Below are positions 127 to 27,087 of a stretch of DNA of 43,954 nucleotides, piece by piece. A program made the position numbers and the translations under genes. This DNA is from an uncultured Rhizobiaceae bacterium (GTDB lineage: Bacteria > Pseudomonadota > Alphaproteobacteria > Rickettsiales > UBA1997): positions 1 through 43,954 of the forward strand of contig CAZBNS010000002.1 in NCBI GenBank assembly GCA_964493475.1, written 5' to 3'. Each line of letters opens with the position of its first letter. The first letter of the stretch is position 1. The notes beneath the pieces are model-generated. The model was not told the DNA's origin. It saw nothing but the letters and a program-made list of their open reading frames with translations, and did no database searches.

Positions 127-327
127 TTGCCTACGGGCAAAGTGATGGCTTAAAACACCAAAACCCAATTTTAATTTAGTTCGCAGGTCTTTGTTGTATC
201 TAACGATATAGCGGAGGCTTGCGGTTATAATGAATTATGTTTCATAATTCAAAAGGCTGTAAGGGCTGATTGGGTCAGTTGTTTTAACCTCCGCACTTTT
301 CAAATTATTTGAAGTGCGATTTTTATT
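127..327 (+). ncRNA. Conserved structured leader/ncRNA, copy 1 (unknown family)
   Basis: Helices read from the sequence: 5' hairpin ttgcc-UACG-ggcaa (127-140); hairpin tatc/gata (197-208); P1 gcggagg (211-217)/cctccgc (288-294); P2 cttgcgg (218-224)/ctgtaag (257-263) capped by gaattatg/cataattc (232-250); hairpin gctga/tcagt (265-279). Stems are supported by compensatory changes in copies 2 and 3. Confidence 0.7.
292..327 (+). terminator. Intrinsic terminator at the end of RNA copy 1
   Basis: Stem cgcactt (292-298)/aagtgcg (312-318) is followed by atttttatt. The 5' arm shares nt 292-294 with the P1 3' strand. Confidence 0.65.
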
Positions 328-347
328 AATTAAAAAAGAGGTAAAAT

Positions 348-671
348 ATGATGACTGATAAACTAAGAGAATTAAATAATCTTTTAAATCAGAAAATAGA
401 TGATAGTAAGAATAAGAATAATTCTTATAATAATAATCTCAAAGACGAAATAAATAACATTGAAAGAGAAATACTAGACAAGAAACTATTTCAATTAGAA
501 AGAAAAGCTTTCCAATATATAGTAAATAATAACTTTAATGCAAAACGAGATATAAGAACATTGAGAAGATTATTAAGATATATAGAAAGAACTCACGAAG
601 GAAAAAGAACTAATGAGTGTATGATTGAAAGAGTAGAGAATCTATTGGAAAGTGTGATAAAGAAAGATTAA
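348..671 (+). CDS. Small K/N/E/R-rich, probably helical protein of unknown function (cassette cargo 1)
   Basis: The ORF is 107 aa, with GAGGT (338-342) upstream of ATG 348/351. Its C-terminal segment QYIVNNN..RDIRTLRRLLRYIERT resembles RYYIDNK..GDVIGLRNLLNYIIKT of cargo 2. Confidence 0.6.
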   Translation: MMTDKLRELNNLLNQKIDDSKNKNNSYNNNLKDEINNIEREILDKKLFQLERKAFQYIVNNNFNAKRDIRTLRRLLRYIERTHEGKRTNECMIERVENLLESVIKKD

Positions 672-7907: not shown

Positions 7908-8028
7908 CTTTAAATTGAACTTAATATAAGTAAAACATTAAAAAATATATTTTCAAGATATTTTATTAAATTGGATTGTTAATATGTTATGGTTTTTTAT
8001 TTTAGCTAAATAGTTCAACAACCAAGGA

Positions 8029-8078
8029 CAATCTTTCCACTCCTTGAGGGTCAATATCTGAAGGACAAAGGGGAGCTA
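8029..8078. repeat. Family-1 repeat copy
   Basis: The sequence is caatctttccactccttgagggtcaatatctgaaggacaaaggggagcta. Confidence 0.7.
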
Positions 8079-10444: not shown

Positions 10445-10774
10445 ATGACAGAAAAAAAATTAGTTGATAGATTAAACAAAAGAATAAAAATACAAGCAAA
10501 AACCAACAACAACGATGGTTTTGGCGGCTATTTGGAAACATGGAGTGATTCAAAAATTTTGTGGGCAGAAATTAGACCTGTTTCAAATCTTGATAGTTTT
10601 AGAGGAAAAAGAATTGAAGAAAAAATCACCCATATAATAACAATAAGACATTATGCCCCACTCACAACACAGCATAGAATAAAATACAAAAACAGAATAT
10701 TTGGTATTGTAGGCATTATAAATACGCTTGAAAACAATCAAACTATGGAAATTAGAGCAGAGGAAATATTGTAA
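10445..10774 (+). CDS. Phage/GTA head-tail adaptor (head-closure, SPP1 gp16-like)
   Basis: LNKRIKIQ......DGFGG..ETWSD....WAEIRP.S is typical of head-tail joining proteins. The gene starts 1 nt after the connector gene. Confidence 0.7.
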   Translation: MTEKKLVDRLNKRIKIQAKTNNNDGFGGYLETWSDSKILWAEIRPVSNLDSFRGKRIEEKITHIITIRHYAPLTTQHRIKYKNRIFGIVGIINTLENNQTMEIRAEEIL

Positions 10775-10817: not shown

Positions 10818-10958
10818 AATCTTTCCCTCTGCCCTCACCACCACACTAATCTTTCCCCTCTGCCTTCACCACTACACTAATCTTTCCCCTCCGCCTTCGC
10901 CACTACACTAATCTTTCCCCTCCTTGAGGGGAAATGTCCGAAGGACAAAGGGGAGCTA
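10818..10958. repeat. Tandem array of the family-1 5' half (three units of 30-31 nt) fused to one complete family-1 unit
   Basis: Units aatctttccc(c)tc(t/c)gcc(c/t)t(c)(a/g)cca(c)c(a/t)acact lie at 10818-10847, 10848-10878 and 10879-10909. A full element follows at 10910-10958. Confidence 0.8.
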
Positions 10959-11017: not shown

Positions 11018-11299
11018 TTACTTAATCCTATTAATAACCTTACTTAACCTTTCAAACTTCTTTTCTTCATCATATTTAACTCTACAAGTTTTAATTATAT
11101 AATTAAGTAAGTTTCTTAAACCTATTACATCTCCTCTTACTATTATTTTATTATCAATGTAGTATCTTAATATTTCTTTTATTGGTTCTATTAAGTCTTC
11201 ATTAATTGAGTTATTAATTTTGATTTTCTTTTCGAAATCTTTTTCTTTTTGTAGAAGATATAATTTTTTGAATAAATCGTTTTTCATCAGTTCGTCCAT
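11018..11299 (-). CDS. Small helical protein of unknown function (cassette cargo 2)
   Basis: The ORF track starts at 11311. That ATG overlaps the GAGGT that aligns with the SD of copies 1 and 3, so ATG 11299 (MDELMKND..., 93 aa) is the likelier start. It is a paralog of cargo 1 by C-terminal similarity. Confidence 0.6.
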   Translation of the reverse strand: MDELMKNDLFKKLYLLQKEKDFEKKIKINNSINEDLIEPIKEILRYYIDNKIIVRGDVIGLRNLLNYIIKTCRVKYDEEKKFERLSKVINRIK

Positions 11300-11320
11300 T
11301 TTAGACCTCATTTTTTAATT

Positions 11321-11352
11321 AATAAAAATCGCACCATTCTAAGAAAAGTGCG
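11321..11352 (-). terminator. Intrinsic terminator at the end of RNA copy 2
   Basis: On the minus strand, stem cgcac (11352-11348)/gtgcg (11334-11330) is followed by atttttatt. Confidence 0.6.
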
Positions 11353-11514
11353 GAGGTTAAACTAACTGACACTATCAGCTCTCACAGCCTTTTAGACTAT
11401 AAATAGCCTATTATAACCGCAAGCCTCCGCTATATCGTTAGATACAACAAAAGCCTGCAGACTAAATTAAATAGTGTTTCGGTAGTTTACACCGTCAACT
11501 TTGCCCGTAGGCAA
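11321..11514 (-). ncRNA. Conserved structured leader/ncRNA, copy 2
   Basis: The reverse complement aligns with 127-327, and a 41-nt run equals 191-231 exactly. It has the same ttgcc-UACG-ggcaa 5' hairpin (11501-11514). The P2 apical hairpin changes to taggcta/tagtcta (11393-11410). Confidence 0.7.
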
Positions 11515-11518
11515 TTCA

Positions 11519-11547
11519 ATTATTAATTGTTTTAATTAAGATGTCAA
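11519..11547 (-). promoter_or_regulatory. Sigma70-like promoter of cassette copy 2 (TTGACA-N17-AATAAT)
   Basis: On the minus strand, TTGACA is at 11547-11542, followed by a 17-nt spacer and AATAAT at 11524-11519. The -35 element abuts the gatA stop codon. Confidence 0.55.
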
Positions 11548-15041: not shown

Positions 15042-15116
15042 TGGAGCGGGTGACGGGGCTTGAACCCGCGACCCCAACCTTGGCAAGGTTGTGCTCTACC
15101 ACTGAGCTACGCCCGC
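15042..15116 (-). tRNA. tRNA-Gly (GCC)
   Basis: The reverse complement folds as a cloverleaf with anticodon loop ttGCCaa. The 3' CCA is encoded. There is one C6-A67 mismatch in the acceptor stem. Confidence 0.9.
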
Positions 15117-15312
15117 TTCAACGACATTGACATTGTAAATTTTAAGTTTTTAAAAATCAAGAGAATATTTTAATTTTTGATATTATATATTATCAGAGTT
15201 TTCAATGAGACTACAAACAGTTCTCTTTTACTTTTTAGAGATTTAATTATTGAATTTATTCAAGTCAAATATTATAAAGTAATGAAAGGAAGTTATTAAA
15301 ATGGCAACATAA

Positions 15313-15387
<75 letters not shown>

Positions 15388-15547
15388 GTATATAAAAAAT
15401 ATATAAAATGTTTTCAAATAATCAATAGAAAAGTGAATCAAATAGAACAACTATACACTTTGAGACTTTAAATAGTCCATCTTTGTCATGTTCTGCTATT
15501 CCAATTTGCTATTTTTATAATTCCTTTTTTCTCTTCTTGTAAGCTGT

Positions 15548-15589
15548 TTATAGCTCCCATTTCGTGTTGCGACAAAGGGGAGCTATAAA
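15548..15589. repeat. Family-1-related perfect 10-bp inverted repeat
   Basis: tatagctccc (15550-15559) pairs with gggagctata (15578-15587), separated by an 18-nt spacer atttcgtgttgcgacaaag. Confidence 0.7.
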
Positions 15590-15703
15590 TTAATTATAAC
15601 AGGAGAAATTTTGAGGAGAAACAAAAATGGCTGCAACAAATGGGAGCTACTAATAATTATATCAATATATATTAGATAATGCCATAAAACATGTTAAAAT
15701 TAA

Positions 15704-15787
15704 TGGTACCCTCGGTCAGACTTGAACTGACACGCCGTGAAGCAATAGATTTTGAGTCTATCGTGTCTACCATTCCACCACGAGGGC
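15704..15787 (-). tRNA. tRNA-Leu (CAA)
   Basis: It has a long variable arm and anticodon loop ctCAAaa. CCA is encoded and length is 84 nt. Confidence 0.9.
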
Positions 15788-15795
15788 ATGAAAGA

Positions 15796-15873
15796 TGGGG
15801 TATGTAGTGGGATTCGAACCCACGACCAACGGAATCACAACCCGCTACTCTAACCAGCTGAGCCATACATACC
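15796..15873 (-). tRNA. tRNA-His (GTG) with encoded G-1
   Basis: An extra 5' G precedes the acceptor stem gtatgta/tacatac. The anticodon loop is ttGTGat and CCA is encoded. Confidence 0.9.
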
Positions 15874-21196: not shown

Positions 21197-21225
21197 TTGA
21201 CAATTAATTTCAAATATTTAACAAT
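21197..21225 (+). promoter_or_regulatory. Sigma70-like promoter of cassette copy 3 (TTGACA-N17-AACAAT)
   Basis: TTGACA lies at 21197-21202, followed by a 17-nt spacer and AACAAT at 21220-21225. Confidence 0.55.
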
Positions 21226-21230
21226 GAATT

Positions 21231-21428
21231 TGTCTTAAGAAGACCTTAAGACATTGTTGATGGTTTAAAACACCAAAAAGCGATTAGATGATGTCGTAAG
21301 TCTTTGTTATGCAAAGCATAGCGGAGGCTTACGGTTATAATGAGTTGCATTTGCAGCTTAAAAGGCTGTAAGAGCTGATCGCTTCAGTTGTTTTAACCTC
21401 CGCACTTTTATCAGTGCGATTTTTATTA
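21231..21428 (+). ncRNA. Conserved structured leader/ncRNA, copy 3 (most diverged)
   Basis: The 5' hairpin is replaced by tgtcttaag/cttaagaca (21231-21253). Hairpin tatgc/gcata lies at 21308-21320. P1 is gcggagg (21321-21327)/cctccgc (21397-21403). P2 is cttacgg/ctgtaag, with apical hairpin agttgc/gcagct (21343-21358). Confidence 0.7.
21401..21428 (+). terminator. Intrinsic terminator at the end of RNA copy 3
   Basis: Stem cgcact (21401-21406)/agtgcg (21413-21418) is followed by atttttatta. It overlaps the P1 3' strand by 3 nt. Confidence 0.6.
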
Positions 21429-21450
21429 ATTAGAATAAAAGAGGTTTGAA

Positions 21451-21882
21451 ATGATAGAAGATGAATTATATAATCCCGGTGAAGAAGAATTTAAAGTTGA
21501 TAAAACACTAAATAAAAAAAGCATAAAAGAAGAGATGAAAATTAGCAGAATGTTAATTAACATAAATGAAATTCAAAATTTAATAGATTGTTTTGAATTA
21601 AATAATCATTTTTCAAATGATTATAACTATAAGGAAATATTAAATACAAATAATTGCCATTATTTAGAAAATCTTTTTAAAGCAAAAATATTAGAATTAA
21701 ATATAATAATCATAAAAAACTATTTGGAAGTTAATAAATTTAATTTCAATTTTGATAAGCTAAAAAAATCAAGAAAAATAATGGACAAGCTGTTGAAAGT
21801 CTACAGTTGCTCGCAAGAAAAGGCTGTAAAAAAAATTAAAGAACTGATTGCTTGGAGTGGTATTGAGGAAAGGGAAGTTTGA
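21451..21882 (+). CDS. Small K/N/E-rich protein of unknown function (cassette cargo 3)
   Basis: This 143-aa ORF has AGAGGT 7 nt upstream of its ATG. It shows only faint similarity to cargos 1 and 2 (NYLEVNKFN...KIMDKLLKVY). Confidence 0.55.
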   Translation: MIEDELYNPGEEEFKVDKTLNKKSIKEEMKISRMLININEIQNLIDCFELNNHFSNDYNYKEILNTNNCHYLENLFKAKILELNIIIIKNYLEVNKFNFNFDKLKKSRKIMDKLLKVYSCSQEKAVKKIKELIAWSGIEEREV

Positions 21883-21932
21883 TATTATATTGGCCTAGAC
21901 TTTGCTTTTTAACCGATTATATTAATAATTTC

Positions 21933-21961
21933 TTGACAATAATTAAATAATAAGCGATTAT
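21933..21961 (+). promoter_or_regulatory. Candidate promoter for virB10 (TTGACA-N17-GATTAT)
   Basis: TTGACA lies at 21933-21938 and GATTAT at 21956-21961. This is a weak call in AT-rich DNA. Confidence 0.3.
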
Positions 21962-21987
21962 TTTATACAGTTTATGTTATATGTAGT

Positions 21988-23493
21988 ATGCAGCAAAATC
22001 AGATAACCAATACTAATACTCAAGAAGATATTGCCGAAACTGATGAAGATACGATTGGCGTTGGCAGCTCGAAACAAAGTAAAATGATTTTAATCGTTTT
22101 TATAGTTGTATTTGTTTCCACTGTTATATATTTTCTTTTCTTGAAAGAGCCGGCTGATACTACTGTGGGACCAAGCACTGATGAAATAGTTATTCAAAAA
22201 GGCGGACAGCCAACTAGAGGGGTTAGCATTGATTATAATATTTCAGATTTGTTGGATGTGGCTCCAACTGATGATAGATTTTTAACTCCTCAAACACAAG
22301 ATACAGTTCCAGCTTTACCGGAATTGCCGTCATTGCCGGAAGAAATAAGGCAACAGATTGCTAGTGGAGAAAAGAAAGATGAAAAAACATTCACTAAAGA
22401 AGAAGTTGATAAAATGATTAGCGATAGGTTAAAAGAGGCTATGGAGCAACAAATGGAAGCTATAACAAAGCTTAGTGCGCAACAACAGCCTAGAGATGAA
22501 GTAAGAACTGCAGCACCTGCGGGTATTGTGATAACTCCTCCTAGACAACAACAGCCTGTGAGAGCTGGAGATCCAACATCTATAAGTCTTCCTGGAGATG
22601 CTACGGCTGGACTTGATACTGCGAACATGACAGACGAAGAAATTTTAACTGCGCAGCAAAAAAAAGAAGCTGAGGCATTAGAGAAAATTAAAAAAGATAA
22701 AATTTTACAAGAAAGAAAAGTTGCGCCTATGTTTAAAGTGAGTTCTGGAACAGGACCTGCTAAAAGTAGTCTTGACACTTCTGATTTTATTATACTATCT
22801 TATACTGACAACAAACTTGACATTCAAAATAAAACGCCTGATGTTATACCGACACAAGTTACGGACTTAACGAGAGTGATATTGCAGGGAAAAGTTATAA
22901 GCGCAGTTCTTGAAACGGCTATAGATACTGATATAGCTTCAACAGTAAGAGCAGTAATTACAAGAGACATATATGCTGAAGAAGGCAAAAACATTCTAAT
23001 ACCAAAAGGCTCAAGAGTTATTGGAAATTATGAAACTAATATAACATCAGGACAAACAAGAGTTACAATTAATTGGAATAGAATTATAAGAGTTGATGGA
23101 ATGAGCTTAAATATAGCTTCTATTGGCGCAGATAGGCTTGGAAGAGCTGGTGTTGCGGGTGATTTAGATAATAGATATGCTCAACGTTTGGCAAATTCAT
23201 TCTTATCAAGTGTTTTAAGTGTTGGTACCTCCTTAGCTGTTGAAAAAGTTAGCGGTTCTACTGGAATTACAAATACAATAAGCTCTTTAACTGGAGAATC
23301 TACTACAACAAGTGGAAAAGCGTCAGATTATGCTTTAATACAAGCTACAAAAGATTTTATGAGTGATGCCCAAGATATAGTAGACGATATAGCCGAACAA
23401 AAACCTGTAATTAGAATTCCGCAGGGTGAAAAAGTAATGATTATGGTTACTCAAGATTTAACCCTTCCAGTATATAAAAGGAGTAATAGATAA
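21988..23493 (+). CDS. virB10: Type IV secretion system protein VirB10
   Basis: It has an N-terminal TM helix, a P/Q-rich linker and a C-terminal TrbI/VirB10 barrel region (VISAVLETAIDTD....V.A.ITRDIY...GK.ILIPKGSRVIG.Y). Confidence 0.9.
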   Translation: MQQNQITNTNTQEDIAETDEDTIGVGSSKQSKMILIVFIVVFVSTVIYFLFLKEPADTTVGPSTDEIVIQKGGQPTRGVSIDYNISDLLDVAPTDDRFLTPQTQDTVPALPELPSLPEEIRQQIASGEKKDEKTFTKEEVDKMISDRLKEAMEQQMEAITKLSAQQQPRDEVRTAAPAGIVITPPRQQQPVRAGDPTSISLPGDATAGLDTANMTDEEILTAQQKKEAEALEKIKKDKILQERKVAPMFKVSSGTGPAKSSLDTSDFIILSYTDNKLDIQNKTPDVIPTQVTDLTRVILQGKVISAVLETAIDTDIASTVRAVITRDIYAEEGKNILIPKGSRVIGNYETNITSGQTRVTINWNRIIRVDGMSLNIASIGADRLGRAGVAGDLDNRYAQRLANSFLSSVLSVGTSLAVEKVSGSTGITNTISSLTGESTTTSGKASDYALIQATKDFMSDAQDIVDDIAEQKPVIRIPQGEKVMIMVTQDLTLPVYKRSNR

Positions 23494-24966: not shown

Positions 24967-27087
24967 TTGATGTTTGAAATAAAAAGAAAAGAGATGGAGT
25001 GGGGCGGAAAAAAATTAAGTTTGGAAACTGGTAGAATTGGAAGGCAAGCAAGTTCGGTTATTGTTAGATATGGAAAGACTGTTGTAATGTGCAATGTAAC
25101 GGTTGCAAAAAAAGAAACAACAGGCATAGATTTTATACCATTAACTGTTTCTTATATTGAAAAATTTTATTCTGCTGGAAAAATACCTGGTGGATTTATA
25201 AAAAGAGAAACAAAACCTTCTGATAATGAAACATTAATTGCAAGAGCAATTGATAGGCCAATTAGACCTTTGTTCCCTTCAAATTATAGATATGAAACGA
25301 ATATTTTTTGTACTTTAATTGCTTATGATGAAGCTTGTCCGGTTGATGTTATTGCAATGATTGGGGCTTCTACAGCTTTAAGTATTTCACGAGCGCCTTT
25401 TGAAGATGTTATCGCAGGTGCAAAAGTGAGCTATAAAAATGGTGAGTATTTGCTAAATCAAGTAGAACCGTTTGAAAATAATGGTAAATTAGATTTAACT
25501 GTTGCTGGAACAAAAGATTCAATTTTAATGGTTGAATCTGAAGCAAAAGAATTAAGCGAAACTGAAATGTTAAAAGCATTGGCTTTCGGACATGCTGAAT
25601 TAGGCAAAGTTGTTGATTTTATTAAATCATTTATTGCAGAATGCAAAGTTGAAAAATTAAAAATTGAAGAACAAGATTTTTCACAATTAGAAAAAGATAT
25701 TGCTGATTTTGCAACAACAGATATTAAAGAAGCATACAATATAGTAGCAAAGCAGGAAAGAGTATCTAAAATTGAAGAAATAACTGAAAAAATTAGGGAA
25801 AAGTTTGTTGGAGAAAGTGAAGACGAAACTTTATCTAATAAAGTTGATGAAATTCAAAGAGATATTGAAAGAGATATCGTTAGAAAAATGGTTCTTAGCG
25901 AAGGCAAAAGAATTGATGGAAGAAAAGTAAATCAAGTTAGGCCTATCAAATCCGAAATTGATATATTGCCGATTGTTCATGGTTCCGCTCTATTTACTAG
26001 AGGCGAAACTCAAGCATTGGTTATCACAACGCTTGGTTCAGAGCATGACGAACAATTATTAGATAATATTTCTGAAGCTGAAGATAGCCAAGATTTCTTA
26101 TTGCATTATAATTTTCCTCCTTATGCGGTTGGTGAAGTTGGTGCATTAAGAGCTCCGGGCAGAAGAGAAATCGGACATGGCAAACTAGCGTGGAAAGCAA
26201 TTCATAATATAATCGACAAAAAAGACTTCCCTTATACTATAAGAGTTGTATCTGAAATCACGGAATCAAATGGCTCTTCGTCAATGGCTACAGTTTGCGG
26301 AACTTCATTGTCTTTAATGGCAAGCGGCGTTCCTATGAAAGCCCCAGTATCTGGTATTGCTATGGGTTTAATTAAAGAGAAAGATAGTTTTGTAGTTTTA
26401 AGCGATATTATGGGCGATGAAGATCACTTGGGCGATATGGATTTCAAGGTTGCTGGAACAAAAGATGGTATTACAGCGCTTCAAATGGATATTAAATGCA
26501 AGGGCGTAAATGAAGAAATTATGACTGTTGCATTAAACCAAGCGAAAGACGGCAGATTTCATATTCTTGAAAAAATGGCTGAAGCCATAGGGGAATCAAG
26601 GCCTGATATTTCCGAAACTGCACCAAGACCTTTGACTATGAAAATTAAAACAGAAAAAATCAAAGAAGTAATTGGACCTAAAGGCAAGAATATCAAAGAG
26701 ATTATTGAAAAAACTGGAACTTCTATTGATATTTCTGATGATGGAACCGTTGTTATTATGTCAAACAATCCAGAAAACAGCGAGGCTGCTAAAAAATTAA
26801 TTGAAGCAATCGTTGGCGGTGGAAAAAGCGAACTAGAAATGGGAAAAATATATGAAGGAAAAGTATTAAAAGTTGTTGAGTTTGGTGCCTTTGTTGATTT
26901 ACCGGGAAAGGATGATGGATTTATTCATATTAGCCAATTAGCTGATTACAGAGTTGAATTTGTTGATGACATCATTCATGAAGGCGACATTGTAAAAGTT
27001 AAATTAATTGGTTTTGATAAAAATAATAAACCTAAGTTAAGCTACAAGGTTGTAAATCAAAAAACCGGTGAGGATTTAGAAAAATAA
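24967..27087 (+). CDS. pnp: Polyribonucleotide nucleotidyltransferase (PNPase)
   Basis: It has two RNase PH domains, a KH domain and a C-terminal S1 domain. Size is 706 aa and it lies downstream of rpsO. Confidence 0.97.
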   Translation: MMFEIKRKEMEWGGKKLSLETGRIGRQASSVIVRYGKTVVMCNVTVAKKETTGIDFIPLTVSYIEKFYSAGKIPGGFIKRETKPSDNETLIARAIDRPIRPLFPSNYRYETNIFCTLIAYDEACPVDVIAMIGASTALSISRAPFEDVIAGAKVSYKNGEYLLNQVEPFENNGKLDLTVAGTKDSILMVESEAKELSETEMLKALAFGHAELGKVVDFIKSFIAECKVEKLKIEEQDFSQLEKDIADFATTDIKEAYNIVAKQERVSKIEEITEKIREKFVGESEDETLSNKVDEIQRDIERDIVRKMVLSEGKRIDGRKVNQVRPIKSEIDILPIVHGSALFTRGETQALVITTLGSEHDEQLLDNISEAEDSQDFLLHYNFPPYAVGEVGALRAPGRREIGHGKLAWKAIHNIIDKKDFPYTIRVVSEITESNGSSSMATVCGTSLSLMASGVPMKAPVSGIAMGLIKEKDSFVVLSDIMGDEDHLGDMDFKVAGTKDGITALQMDIKCKGVNEEIMTVALNQAKDGRFHILEKMAEAIGESRPDISETAPRPLTMKIKTEKIKEVIGPKGKNIKEIIEKTGTSIDISDDGTVVIMSNNPENSEAAKKLIEAIVGGGKSELEMGKIYEGKVLKVVEFGAFVDLPGKDDGFIHISQLADYRVEFVDDIIHEGDIVKVKLIGFDKNNKPKLSYKVVNQKTGEDLEK

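Follow-up and report, generated by a model that had tools for sequence, protein, structure and literature searches.

Structured leader RNAs that gate an intrinsic terminator are a known kind of bacterial regulator. In the crcB fluoride riboswitch (PMC8752731) and the hydroxymethylpyrimidine pyrophosphate (HMP-PP) thiS riboswitch (PMC6478431), a structured 5′ leader with long-range or pseudoknot pairing lies directly upstream of an open reading frame (ORF), the 3′ strand of the closing helix shares a few nucleotides with the terminator stem, and the fold of the sensor decides termination. Here we describe a leader with a similar layout in a 43,954-nt stretch of DNA (contig CAZBNS010000002.1 of GenBank assembly GCA_964493475.1, positions 1–43,954; hereafter the window) from an uncultured bacterium that GTDB places in the Rickettsiales (UBA1997). 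The window holds three copies (A, B and C), each consisting of a promoter, a structured leader of ~195 nt, an intrinsic terminator, a Shine-Dalgarno sequence (SD) and a small ORF. Within the leader, helices P1, P2 and P3 form a junction with two long-range loop pairings (PK1 and PK2), and an upstream hairpin, H0, competes with that junction. We conclude that it is a new class of structured leader RNA and that its reading as a switch is partly supported. We put the probability at about 55% that it is a three-helix attenuator in which H0, the P1 junction and the terminator are alternatives, off by default and gated by an effector.

Unlike the crcB and thiS riboswitches, the leader has no Rfam match, combines the P1/P2/P3/PK1 junction with a second loop pairing and carries H0 upstream as a competitor. 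The genes that it would control encode lineage-restricted small proteins rather than metabolic or transport functions, there are many copies per genome, and no ligand is known. Of the features by which riboswitches are generally recognised, it has a structured 5′ leader supported by covariation and, in silico only, an expression platform that excludes the aptamer helix.

Three-helix attenuators (the trp leader, PyrR and T-box systems) are alike in that a middle helix, here P1 with its junction, excludes both an upstream hairpin, here H0, and the terminator. Unlike trp-type attenuators, the leader shows no conserved leader ORF or leader peptide when its sequences are read by eye. For example, ATG-GCT-TAA (145–153 in copy A) is found neither in copy C nor in any copy with a short-type H0 (described below), and an ATG after GGAGG (231) occurs in some copies only. 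The leader is not a T-box, because it has no Rfam match. In classical attenuators the antiterminator is a simple hairpin, not a large pseudoknotted junction with only a 3-nt terminator overlap, as it would be here, and the leader has no known RNA-binding regulator motif. It is also unlike antisense-controlled attenuation of the pT181/pIP501 type, as no conserved countertranscript promoter was seen on the opposite strand: minus-strand promoter-like sites are weak, lie in the hypervariable P2a region and are not kept in copies B or C.

Two further comparisons are informative. SAM-I and cobalamin aptamers share a multi-helix junction and a loop-to-strand pseudoknot or kissing contact that links sensor to expression platform, but they differ in their conserved nucleotides, the leader matches neither in Rfam sequence or structure, and its PK2 is variable (22 loops in 29 copies) instead of conserved. 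Type III toxin–antitoxin (TA) loci (ToxIN, CptIN, TenpIN) share the order of promoter, structured RNA, intrinsic terminator and small protein gene, are multicopy and fast-evolving, and have pseudoknots in their RNA. Unlike these, the leader is a single complex fold rather than a series of tandem 30–40-nt repeats, and its protein is a three-helix one without ToxN/AbiQ similarity.

The RNA family is not in Rfam. At gathering score, Rfam 15 reports only tRNAs in the window and no match in four related loci, and a sensitive scan of positions 60–400 gave sub-threshold matches only, the best being GcvB (18 bits against a cut-off of 42). The junction with two long-range pairings, H0, the 3-nt contest on which the whole terminator depends and the multicopy association with orphan proteins are likewise absent from Rfam, and full-text literature searches found neither these features nor the family.

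A conserved fold closed by P1

A sequence-only reading of this DNA had proposed a closing helix of GCGGAGG with CCTCCGC (P1; 211–217 with 288–294 in copy A) in all three copies, and we find it in each. The pattern GGAGG-N(50–78)-CCTCC has exactly three matches in the window (0.08 expected from shuffles), and GGAGGNNNNCGG also has three (0.04 expected). The P1-closed cores lie at 211–294 (copy A) and 21321–21403 (copy B) on the plus strand and at 11430–11350 (copy C) on the minus strand, and each folds into the same three-way junction, with energies of −31.8 to −36.4 kcal/mol and z-scores of −4.1 to −5.9. The similarity among the three extends over about 260 nt of non-coding sequence, whose conservation is far above that of the small ORFs that follow. 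A repeat search offered a "third copy" at 25573, which is a chance match within a coding region.

We assessed covariation in an alignment of 29 distinct copies (A3), which includes loci outside the window (designated by L-numbers; L001, L003, L004, L006, L044, L046 and L048 were reached solely through homology of their proteins). In this alignment the named structure is 89.8% paired, versus 40–46% when partners are slid by 1–3 columns, and 29 pairs change on both sides. RNAalifold, run on the 29 leaders, predicts hairpins hp1 and hp2 as well as P1, P2, P2a and P3.

The following coordinates are for copy A, on the plus strand. The promoter, TTGACA-17-AACAAT (94–122), is matched in hexamers and spacing by those of copies B and C and is kept in most of the aligned copies; transcription probably starts at about 126–130. 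The 5′-terminal hairpin hp1 (127–140; TTGCC TACG GGCAA) is paired in 95% of alignment cells, with one two-sided pair change (CG in 26, UA in 2). It is followed by hp2 (146–160), a 3-bp stem whose closing pair covaries (UA in 12, CG in 10, GC in 5) and whose 9-nt loop holds the strand X1 (150–157, TTAAAACA). After hp2 come X2 (163–169, ACCCAAT) and H0 (181–224), a G·U-rich hairpin of ~20 bp whose 3′ arm (205–224, facing 181–200) holds the P1 5′ strand. Within the junction, P2 (218–226 with 255–263) is 97.7% paired with three pairs changing on both sides, and an invariant AUAA/AAA internal loop (227–230 and 252–254) separates it from the hypervariable hairpin P2a (231–251; 96.5% paired, with eight of nine pairs changing on both sides). 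The P3 hairpin (264–280) has two two-sided pair changes in its stem, which are compensatory in L007 (GTCGA/TCGAT) and L031 (GTTGA/TCAAT), and its 7–8-nt loop contains Y2 (269–275, ATTGGGT). The strand Y1 (TGTTTTAA, 280–287), which joins P3 to P1 (J3/1), abuts the P1 3′ strand (288–294).

Three other readings of the leader were considered and dropped. In copy A, the minimum free energy (MFE) structure has an additional 5′ pairing of AAAGUG (139–144) with CACUUU (294–299); it would be a possible second antiterminator contact, but it is not conserved in copies B and C. By eye, a related AGTG/GTG motif is present in about half of copies. The P2 5′ strand (CUUGCGGUU, 218–226) has the 7-mer UGCGGUU in common with helix 45 of 16S rRNA (3′ strand), and ACCUCC occurs in the leader as well (287–292), but the order of these elements is permuted relative to 16S, so we judge the likeness to the anti-SD region coincidental. 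A tRNA-like reading of GCGGAGG...CCUCCGCA also failed: ARAGORN and Rfam report only the five true tRNAs in the window and nothing tRNA-like in the leader, and P3 is 8 nt from the acceptor-like strand.

P1 itself nearly never varies across the roughly 36 copies found, so it cannot be proven by covariation. Its 5′ strand is unchanged in 28 of 29 aligned copies, and P1 departs from the rule only by a G·U in one pseudogene copy and by one mismatch each in L003 and L006. Even where a locus was reached through its protein, GCGGAGG, CCUCCGC and the terminator segment GUGCG are nearly unchanged (L003 and L006 have single substitutions), whereas the 5′ arm of H0 and every structure-only helix are free to vary. 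This contrast fits segments that each serve two partners.

Two long-range pairings

PK1 pairs the hp2 loop (X1) with J3/1 (Y1). Five of its pairs change on both sides, and each of the seven distinct Y1 variants has a matching X1. The alleles (X1/Y1) are TTAAAACA/TGTTTTAA, TAAACTA/TAGTTTA, TAAGAAA/TTTCTTA, TTCAAAAA/TTTTTGAA, TTCAAACA/TGTTTGAA, TTCACGA/TCGTGAA and TCGTAG/CTACGA, and none of 644 non-cognate comparisons reaches 7 bp. PK2 pairs the P3 loop (Y2) with X2. Here there are 22 distinct loop sequences in the 29 copies, and the mean Watson–Crick run is 6.8 for cognate partners versus 3.5 for non-cognate ones. For both PK1 and PK2, none of 20000 partner permutations reaches the observed mean. 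Some of the pairs are G·U, which indicates pairing at the RNA level. Since Y1 abuts the P1 3′ strand without a spacer, P1, P2, P3 and PK1 can form a four-helix junction braced by PK2.

Among recent paralogues in one MAG, PK2 changes far faster than its surroundings while staying matched. For example, the ORFs of L011 (5568–5848) and L016 (7761–8000) are 95% identical, yet 10 of 14 PK2 positions differ between these copies and remain complementary. Their other scored helices and loops match, with differences confined to the top of H0 (6/22), the spacer (2/12) and the top of the terminator (1/13); hp1 is not comparable for this pair, as the L016 locus is cut there. Among L009, L013 and L014, 29 of 46 PK2 comparisons differ, versus none in PK1, P1, the P3 stem or the terminator base. 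The same PK2 alleles also recur in different copies (L009 has that of L011, and L016 that of L024), pointing to patchwise exchange among copies followed by selection for matched partners.

In three copies the partners do not match: L008 (5385–5644), L020b (L020:42–310, minus strand) and L048 (148–480) combine the X of one allele with the Y of another, and the X2 of L020b fits the L023 loop. L008 and L020b are at ends of low-coverage contigs. Probably these three are chimeras created by assembly where repeats meet, or else true recombinants.

One could go further and read the leader as a new effector-sensing RNA class (a riboswitch or an attenuator that depends on a factor) of an intracellular Rickettsiales lineage, in which PK2 is a copy-specific "address" that selection keeps matched despite shuffling. 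We regard this reading as unlikely.

H0 competes with P1 for the same nucleotides

When transcription has only just completed the P2 5′ strand, the nascent RNA of all 29 copies folds into H0, which sequesters GCGGAGG. Two types can be distinguished. Long-type H0 has 20–25 bp and −16 to −31 kcal/mol (in most copies −25 to −31) and covers the P2 5′ strand as well, while short-type H0 has about 11 bp and −8 to −12 kcal/mol and covers the P1 strand only. The lower helix of H0 is 85.8% paired (the slid controls, run for the whole tested structure, give 36–47%). One of its pairs is compensatory (CG in 9, UA in 8), and ten vary only by C↔U exchange opposite an invariant G. H0 overlaps the P1/P2 5′ strands by 7–14 nt; because H0 and P1 use the same nucleotides, only one of these two conserved structures can form at a time.

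Before the terminator is made, the H0 state is more stable than the P1 state by a mean of 2.5 kcal/mol (range −3.8 to +7.8), with short-type copies slightly favouring the P1 state. With the terminator included, the H0 state is favoured by a mean of 7.7 kcal/mol. Pseudoknot strands were masked in both states for these comparisons. A length series of copy A gives H0 at all lengths, and the full terminator joins once position 318 is reached. By nearest-neighbour energies, H0 plus the full terminator is the predicted default state.

In copy A the terminator occupies 292–327: its stem pairs CGCACTT (292–298) with AAGTGCG (312–318) below a variable top, and the U-tract ATTTTTATT follows at 319–327. 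The nucleotides C292, G293 and C294 thus serve two helices, as the last three of the P1 3′ strand and the first three of the terminator stem, as the earlier reading had noted when it called the two structures partly exclusive on account of this short overlap. The overlap proves more consequential than its length suggests. Across the 29 copies, the terminator hairpin averages −9.0 kcal/mol but only −0.8 kcal/mol without the CGC/GCG pairs that it has in common with P1, i.e., 3 nt account for about 90% of its stability. Since the shared CGC carries nearly all of this stability, full P1 does away with the terminator, and a full terminator leaves only 4 bp of P1. The idea of a switch stands in that the RNA has conserved, covarying and mutually exclusive helices, a hallmark of such devices, but the main competition is H0 against the P1/P2 5′ strands rather than P1 against the terminator. 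Neither H0 nor the two long-range pairings was part of the original description.

A second argument for a switch had been the complementarity of the SD to the P1 3′ strand. In copy A, the SD GAGGT (338–342) can indeed form 5 bp with ACCTC (287–291), but this is not specific: in 23 copies, the SD region has a mean run of 4.6 with leader AACCUCC versus 4.8 with a generic 16S tail. Since SDs pair with the leader no better than with the 16S tail, this argument adds nothing.

Another view is that there is no switch at all. P1 would then be a static closing helix that serves RNA stability or processing, H0 a transient folding intermediate, the terminator a leaky one or a stabilising 3′ hairpin, and the CGC overlap incidental. 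Consistent with such a view, the core alone robustly forms the junction, RNAalifold chooses the junction, short-type copies have a P1 state whose stability equals or slightly exceeds that of the H0 state, and P1 cut to 5 bp coexists with the terminator in the MFE structure of 205–330. However, H0 is under selection (present in 29/29 copies, with compensatory CG/UA and C↔U changes opposite G), its −25 to −31 kcal/mol in long-type copies is more than a fleeting intermediate needs, and in every copy about 90% of the stability of the terminator lies in the three pairs that P1 contests. We consider a static fold quite unlikely.

Distribution of the family

About 36 copies were found, all from uncultured Rickettsiales metagenome-assembled genomes (MAGs) and metagenomes. 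A DNA-pattern scan covering one genome per species gave 17 loci, confined to two Rickettsiales MAGs: STC_2, with at least 14 copies, and SMAG_U15884, with 4. A metagenome scan, whose pattern left the P1 5′ strand and CCTC free, gave 18 matches, of which 7 were new true copies, all with GCGGAGG/CCTCCGC, and 11 were ordinary unrelated terminators. Every locus retrieved via the cargo proteins has the same leader. The spacing of promoter, terminator and ORF is conserved: with duplicate loci removed, 24 of 29 pattern-found copies have an ORF (of the family or truncated by a contig end) 12–41 nt past the terminator, most at 22–29 nt.

A covariance model of the core (R1) added three further copies within retrieved loci, including a remnant and a pseudogene. 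The remnant (L039:586–668) ends inside the terminator loop and has no ORF; the decaying copy (L011:663–743) has a P1 G·U (CTTCCGC), a broken PK2 and a truncated ORF; and the third (L021:1356–1435) is intact, with PK1 one base pair shorter on both strands. Two arrangements hold more than one leader. In STC_2, a complete leader unit with a promoter and terminator of its own (L019:96–376, minus strand) is followed directly by a second leader (L020:5506–5759, minus strand) and then an ORF, and L006 has a second, partial leader (1973–2118, cut by an N gap) upstream of a complete one (2190–2464).

In STC_2, the duplication block spans promoter to stop codon, about 550–580 nt. The multicopy state (at least 14 in that one MAG) and duplication as such a block, together with palindromes resembling repetitive extragenic palindromic (REP) sequences that flank several copies and the mosaic-like shuffling of variable patches, would also suit inverted repeats that act as DNA rather than RNA, i.e., mobile-cassette signals such as integron attC-like sites, elements akin to miniature inverted-repeat transposable elements or recombination sites. 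However, the pairing of H0, P2 and some PK pairs needs G·U wobbles, which only the transcribed strand offers. The units form no arrays, their ends carry neither target-site duplications nor terminal inverted repeats, no integrase or transposase gene lies near them, and viral, phage and plasmid collections do not contain the element. This makes a DNA-level role extremely improbable. In those same collections there was no blastn match, and two pattern matches in viral contigs were due to chance; we rejected an origin from phage or plasmid on these searches.

Proposed mechanism

We propose that a sigma-70-type promoter drives the leader and that the ORF is made by read-through only. The latter is suggested by the 22–30-nt gap between terminator and ORF, in which by-eye inspection found no conserved promoter. 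In the off state, H0 would form first during transcription and lock up GCGGAGG, leaving CCUCCGC free; its CGC would then complete the terminator stem, transcription would stop, and a short RNA would be released. In the on state, GCGGAGG would instead pair with CCUCCGC, closing the junction of P1, P2, P3 and PK1 braced by PK2. P1 would thereby take the three G/C pairs of the terminator, RNA polymerase would read through, and the SD would be free. H0 would thus act as anti-antiterminator, the P1 junction as antiterminator, and CGCAC/GUGCG with its U5 as terminator. The on state would be near enough in energy for a few kcal/mol from an effector to select it, and candidate effectors are temperature, ribosomes, a small ligand and a protein, which might be the ORF product itself. 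The analysis shows the helices, their covariation, their mutual exclusion and the energy balance, whereas formation of P1 in vivo, conditional termination and the existence of such an effector are inferred.

The main competitor to this attenuator is that the leader is an autonomous RNA: a small RNA or ribonucleoprotein gene, or an antitoxin in the style of type III TA systems, in which a constitutive terminator fixes the ratio of plentiful short RNA to scarce read-through mRNA. Its mature form would be the H0 fold, with single-stranded CCUCC between PK1 and the terminator, acting on the encoded protein or on SDs, in cis or in trans. Each unit carries a promoter and a terminator of its own, H0 plus terminator is the predicted ground state at every transcript length, and a promoter–RNA–terminator–ORF layout is that of ToxIN-type loci. 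A fold with two long-range pairings is also more elaborate than a simple attenuator needs, the cassettes are multicopy and scattered among housekeeping genes, their proteins are fast-evolving, and both a complete leader without an ORF (in the L019/L020 tandem) and a partial second leader (in L006) precede another leader. However, such leader-only copies are few, and some are clear remnants. No tandem RNA repeats were found in the leader by Tandem Repeats Finder or repeat search, and the protein has no Pfam, NCBIfam, PADLOC or PHROGs match and so is no ToxN/AbiQ-like toxin or known defence family. The invariance of GCGGAGG would be unexplained if its only partner were the variable H0 5′ arm, and it would be coincidence that P1 keeps 7 bp of complementarity and that it overlaps exactly with the critical terminator base. 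We therefore consider an autonomous RNA possible but somewhat unlikely.

Several points weigh against the attenuator itself. The downstream genes give no clue to an effector. P1 shows no covariation, and the case for it is its perfect complementarity and its invariance. ViennaRNA cannot score pseudoknots, so the computed H0/P1 balance leaves out PK1 and PK2. Branch migration over 3 bp is fast, and the terminator might displace a pre-formed P1 unless tertiary contacts or a ligand lock it. The leader–leader tandems in STC_2 and L006 suggest that the RNA may have a role of its own. Finally, the data are all in silico and come from a single narrow lineage with evident recombination among copies.

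Downstream proteins

The copy A cargo ORF (348–671, plus strand) encodes a helical protein of 107 aa from a family of unknown function. The ORFs of copies A, B and C (107, 143 and 93 aa) are diverged paralogues, 22–35% identical, and cargo proteins in general are helical, with 93–143 aa. An AlphaFold2 model has three helices and gave no significant Foldseek match. Searches of Pfam, NCBIfam and PADLOC found no match to the cargo proteins, PHROGs none that is meaningful, and a PDB sequence search was negative. The family is small, with only 16–19 clusters in a set of 5.8 billion proteins and 11 representatives in one of 1.84 billion, and the few members with a source name are Rickettsiales MAG proteins. 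This gene context, helical proteins without known relatives, yields no ligand hypothesis.

Copies B and C and their genomic setting

The copy B unit spans 21197–21882 on the plus strand, with its promoter at 21197–21225, H0 at 21294–21334 and P1 at 21321–21327 with 21397–21403. PK1 pairs X1 (21265–21272) with Y1 (21389–21396), and PK2 pairs X2 (21278–21284, AAGCGAT) with Y2 (21378–21384, ATCGCTT). The terminator lies at 21401–21427 (a consensus terminator scan calls this site at 21401–21418), and the ORF, of 143 aa, at 21451–21882. The copy C unit spans 11018–11547 on the minus strand, with its promoter at 11547–11519, H0 at 11460–11417 and P1 at 11430–11424 with 11356–11350. Its PK1 pairs X1 (11490–11483) with Y1 (11364–11357), its PK2 pairs X2 (11477–11471, ACACTAT) with Y2 (11375–11369, ATAGTGT), and the terminator (11352–11321) precedes an ORF of 93 aa (11299–11018).

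The window is AT-rich bacterial DNA with recA, a pilT-like ATPase gene, a gatA-type amidase gene, dapB, a TrbI/VirB10 homologue and tRNA genes. A B-type cassette lies directly upstream of the virB10 (TrbI) gene both in the window (21451–23493) and in L003 (127–2169), where a T2SSE-family ATPase gene (virB11-like) follows virB10; this is the sole conserved synteny seen for any cassette. Adjoining cassette C, among housekeeping genes, an ORF at 10445–10774 (plus strand) has a strong match to Phage_HCP (head completion protein, PF05521) and may be a gene-transfer-agent or prophage remnant.

A palindromic repeat resembling REP sequences or Rickettsia palindromic elements (CTAATCTTTCCCnTCCTTGAGGGGAAATGTC...GGACAAAGGGGAGCTA) occurs in the window at 1–55, 752–802, 8028–8078 and 10908–10958, flanking cassettes A and C, and one of its copies is next to a 31-nt ×3 tandem (10822–10922). 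In another MAG the repeat is found upstream of leaders, whole in L046 (about 1180–1240) and partial in L044, with inconsistent orientation. Four tRNA genes (Gly, Thr, Leu and His) cluster at 15042–15872 on the minus strand and are unrelated to the leader.

Implications

If PK2 were a copy-specific address, the RNA of each cassette would have to tell its own partner strand from all others, much like plasmid incompatibility RNAs and paralogous toxin–antitoxin pairs, which would point to a self-specific RNA–protein module of a kind not known before. A PK2 that is matched yet variable raises a testable question: when a cell holds many RNAs that are nearly identical, how is cross-pairing among them avoided or exploited?

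If the attenuator model holds, the leader would be a new structured RNA class whose fold is documented unusually well, in that two long-range pairings and two mutually exclusive helices are visible from natural covariation. It would also be a clean natural case of a terminator whose whole stability lies in three base pairs contested by a sensor helix, which would be useful for minimal-overlap switches. To our knowledge, few RNA regulators have been described in the Rickettsiales. The RNA would govern a multicopy gene family in an uncultured, presumably intracellular member of this order, and the identity of its effector could reveal the role of the small cargo proteins.

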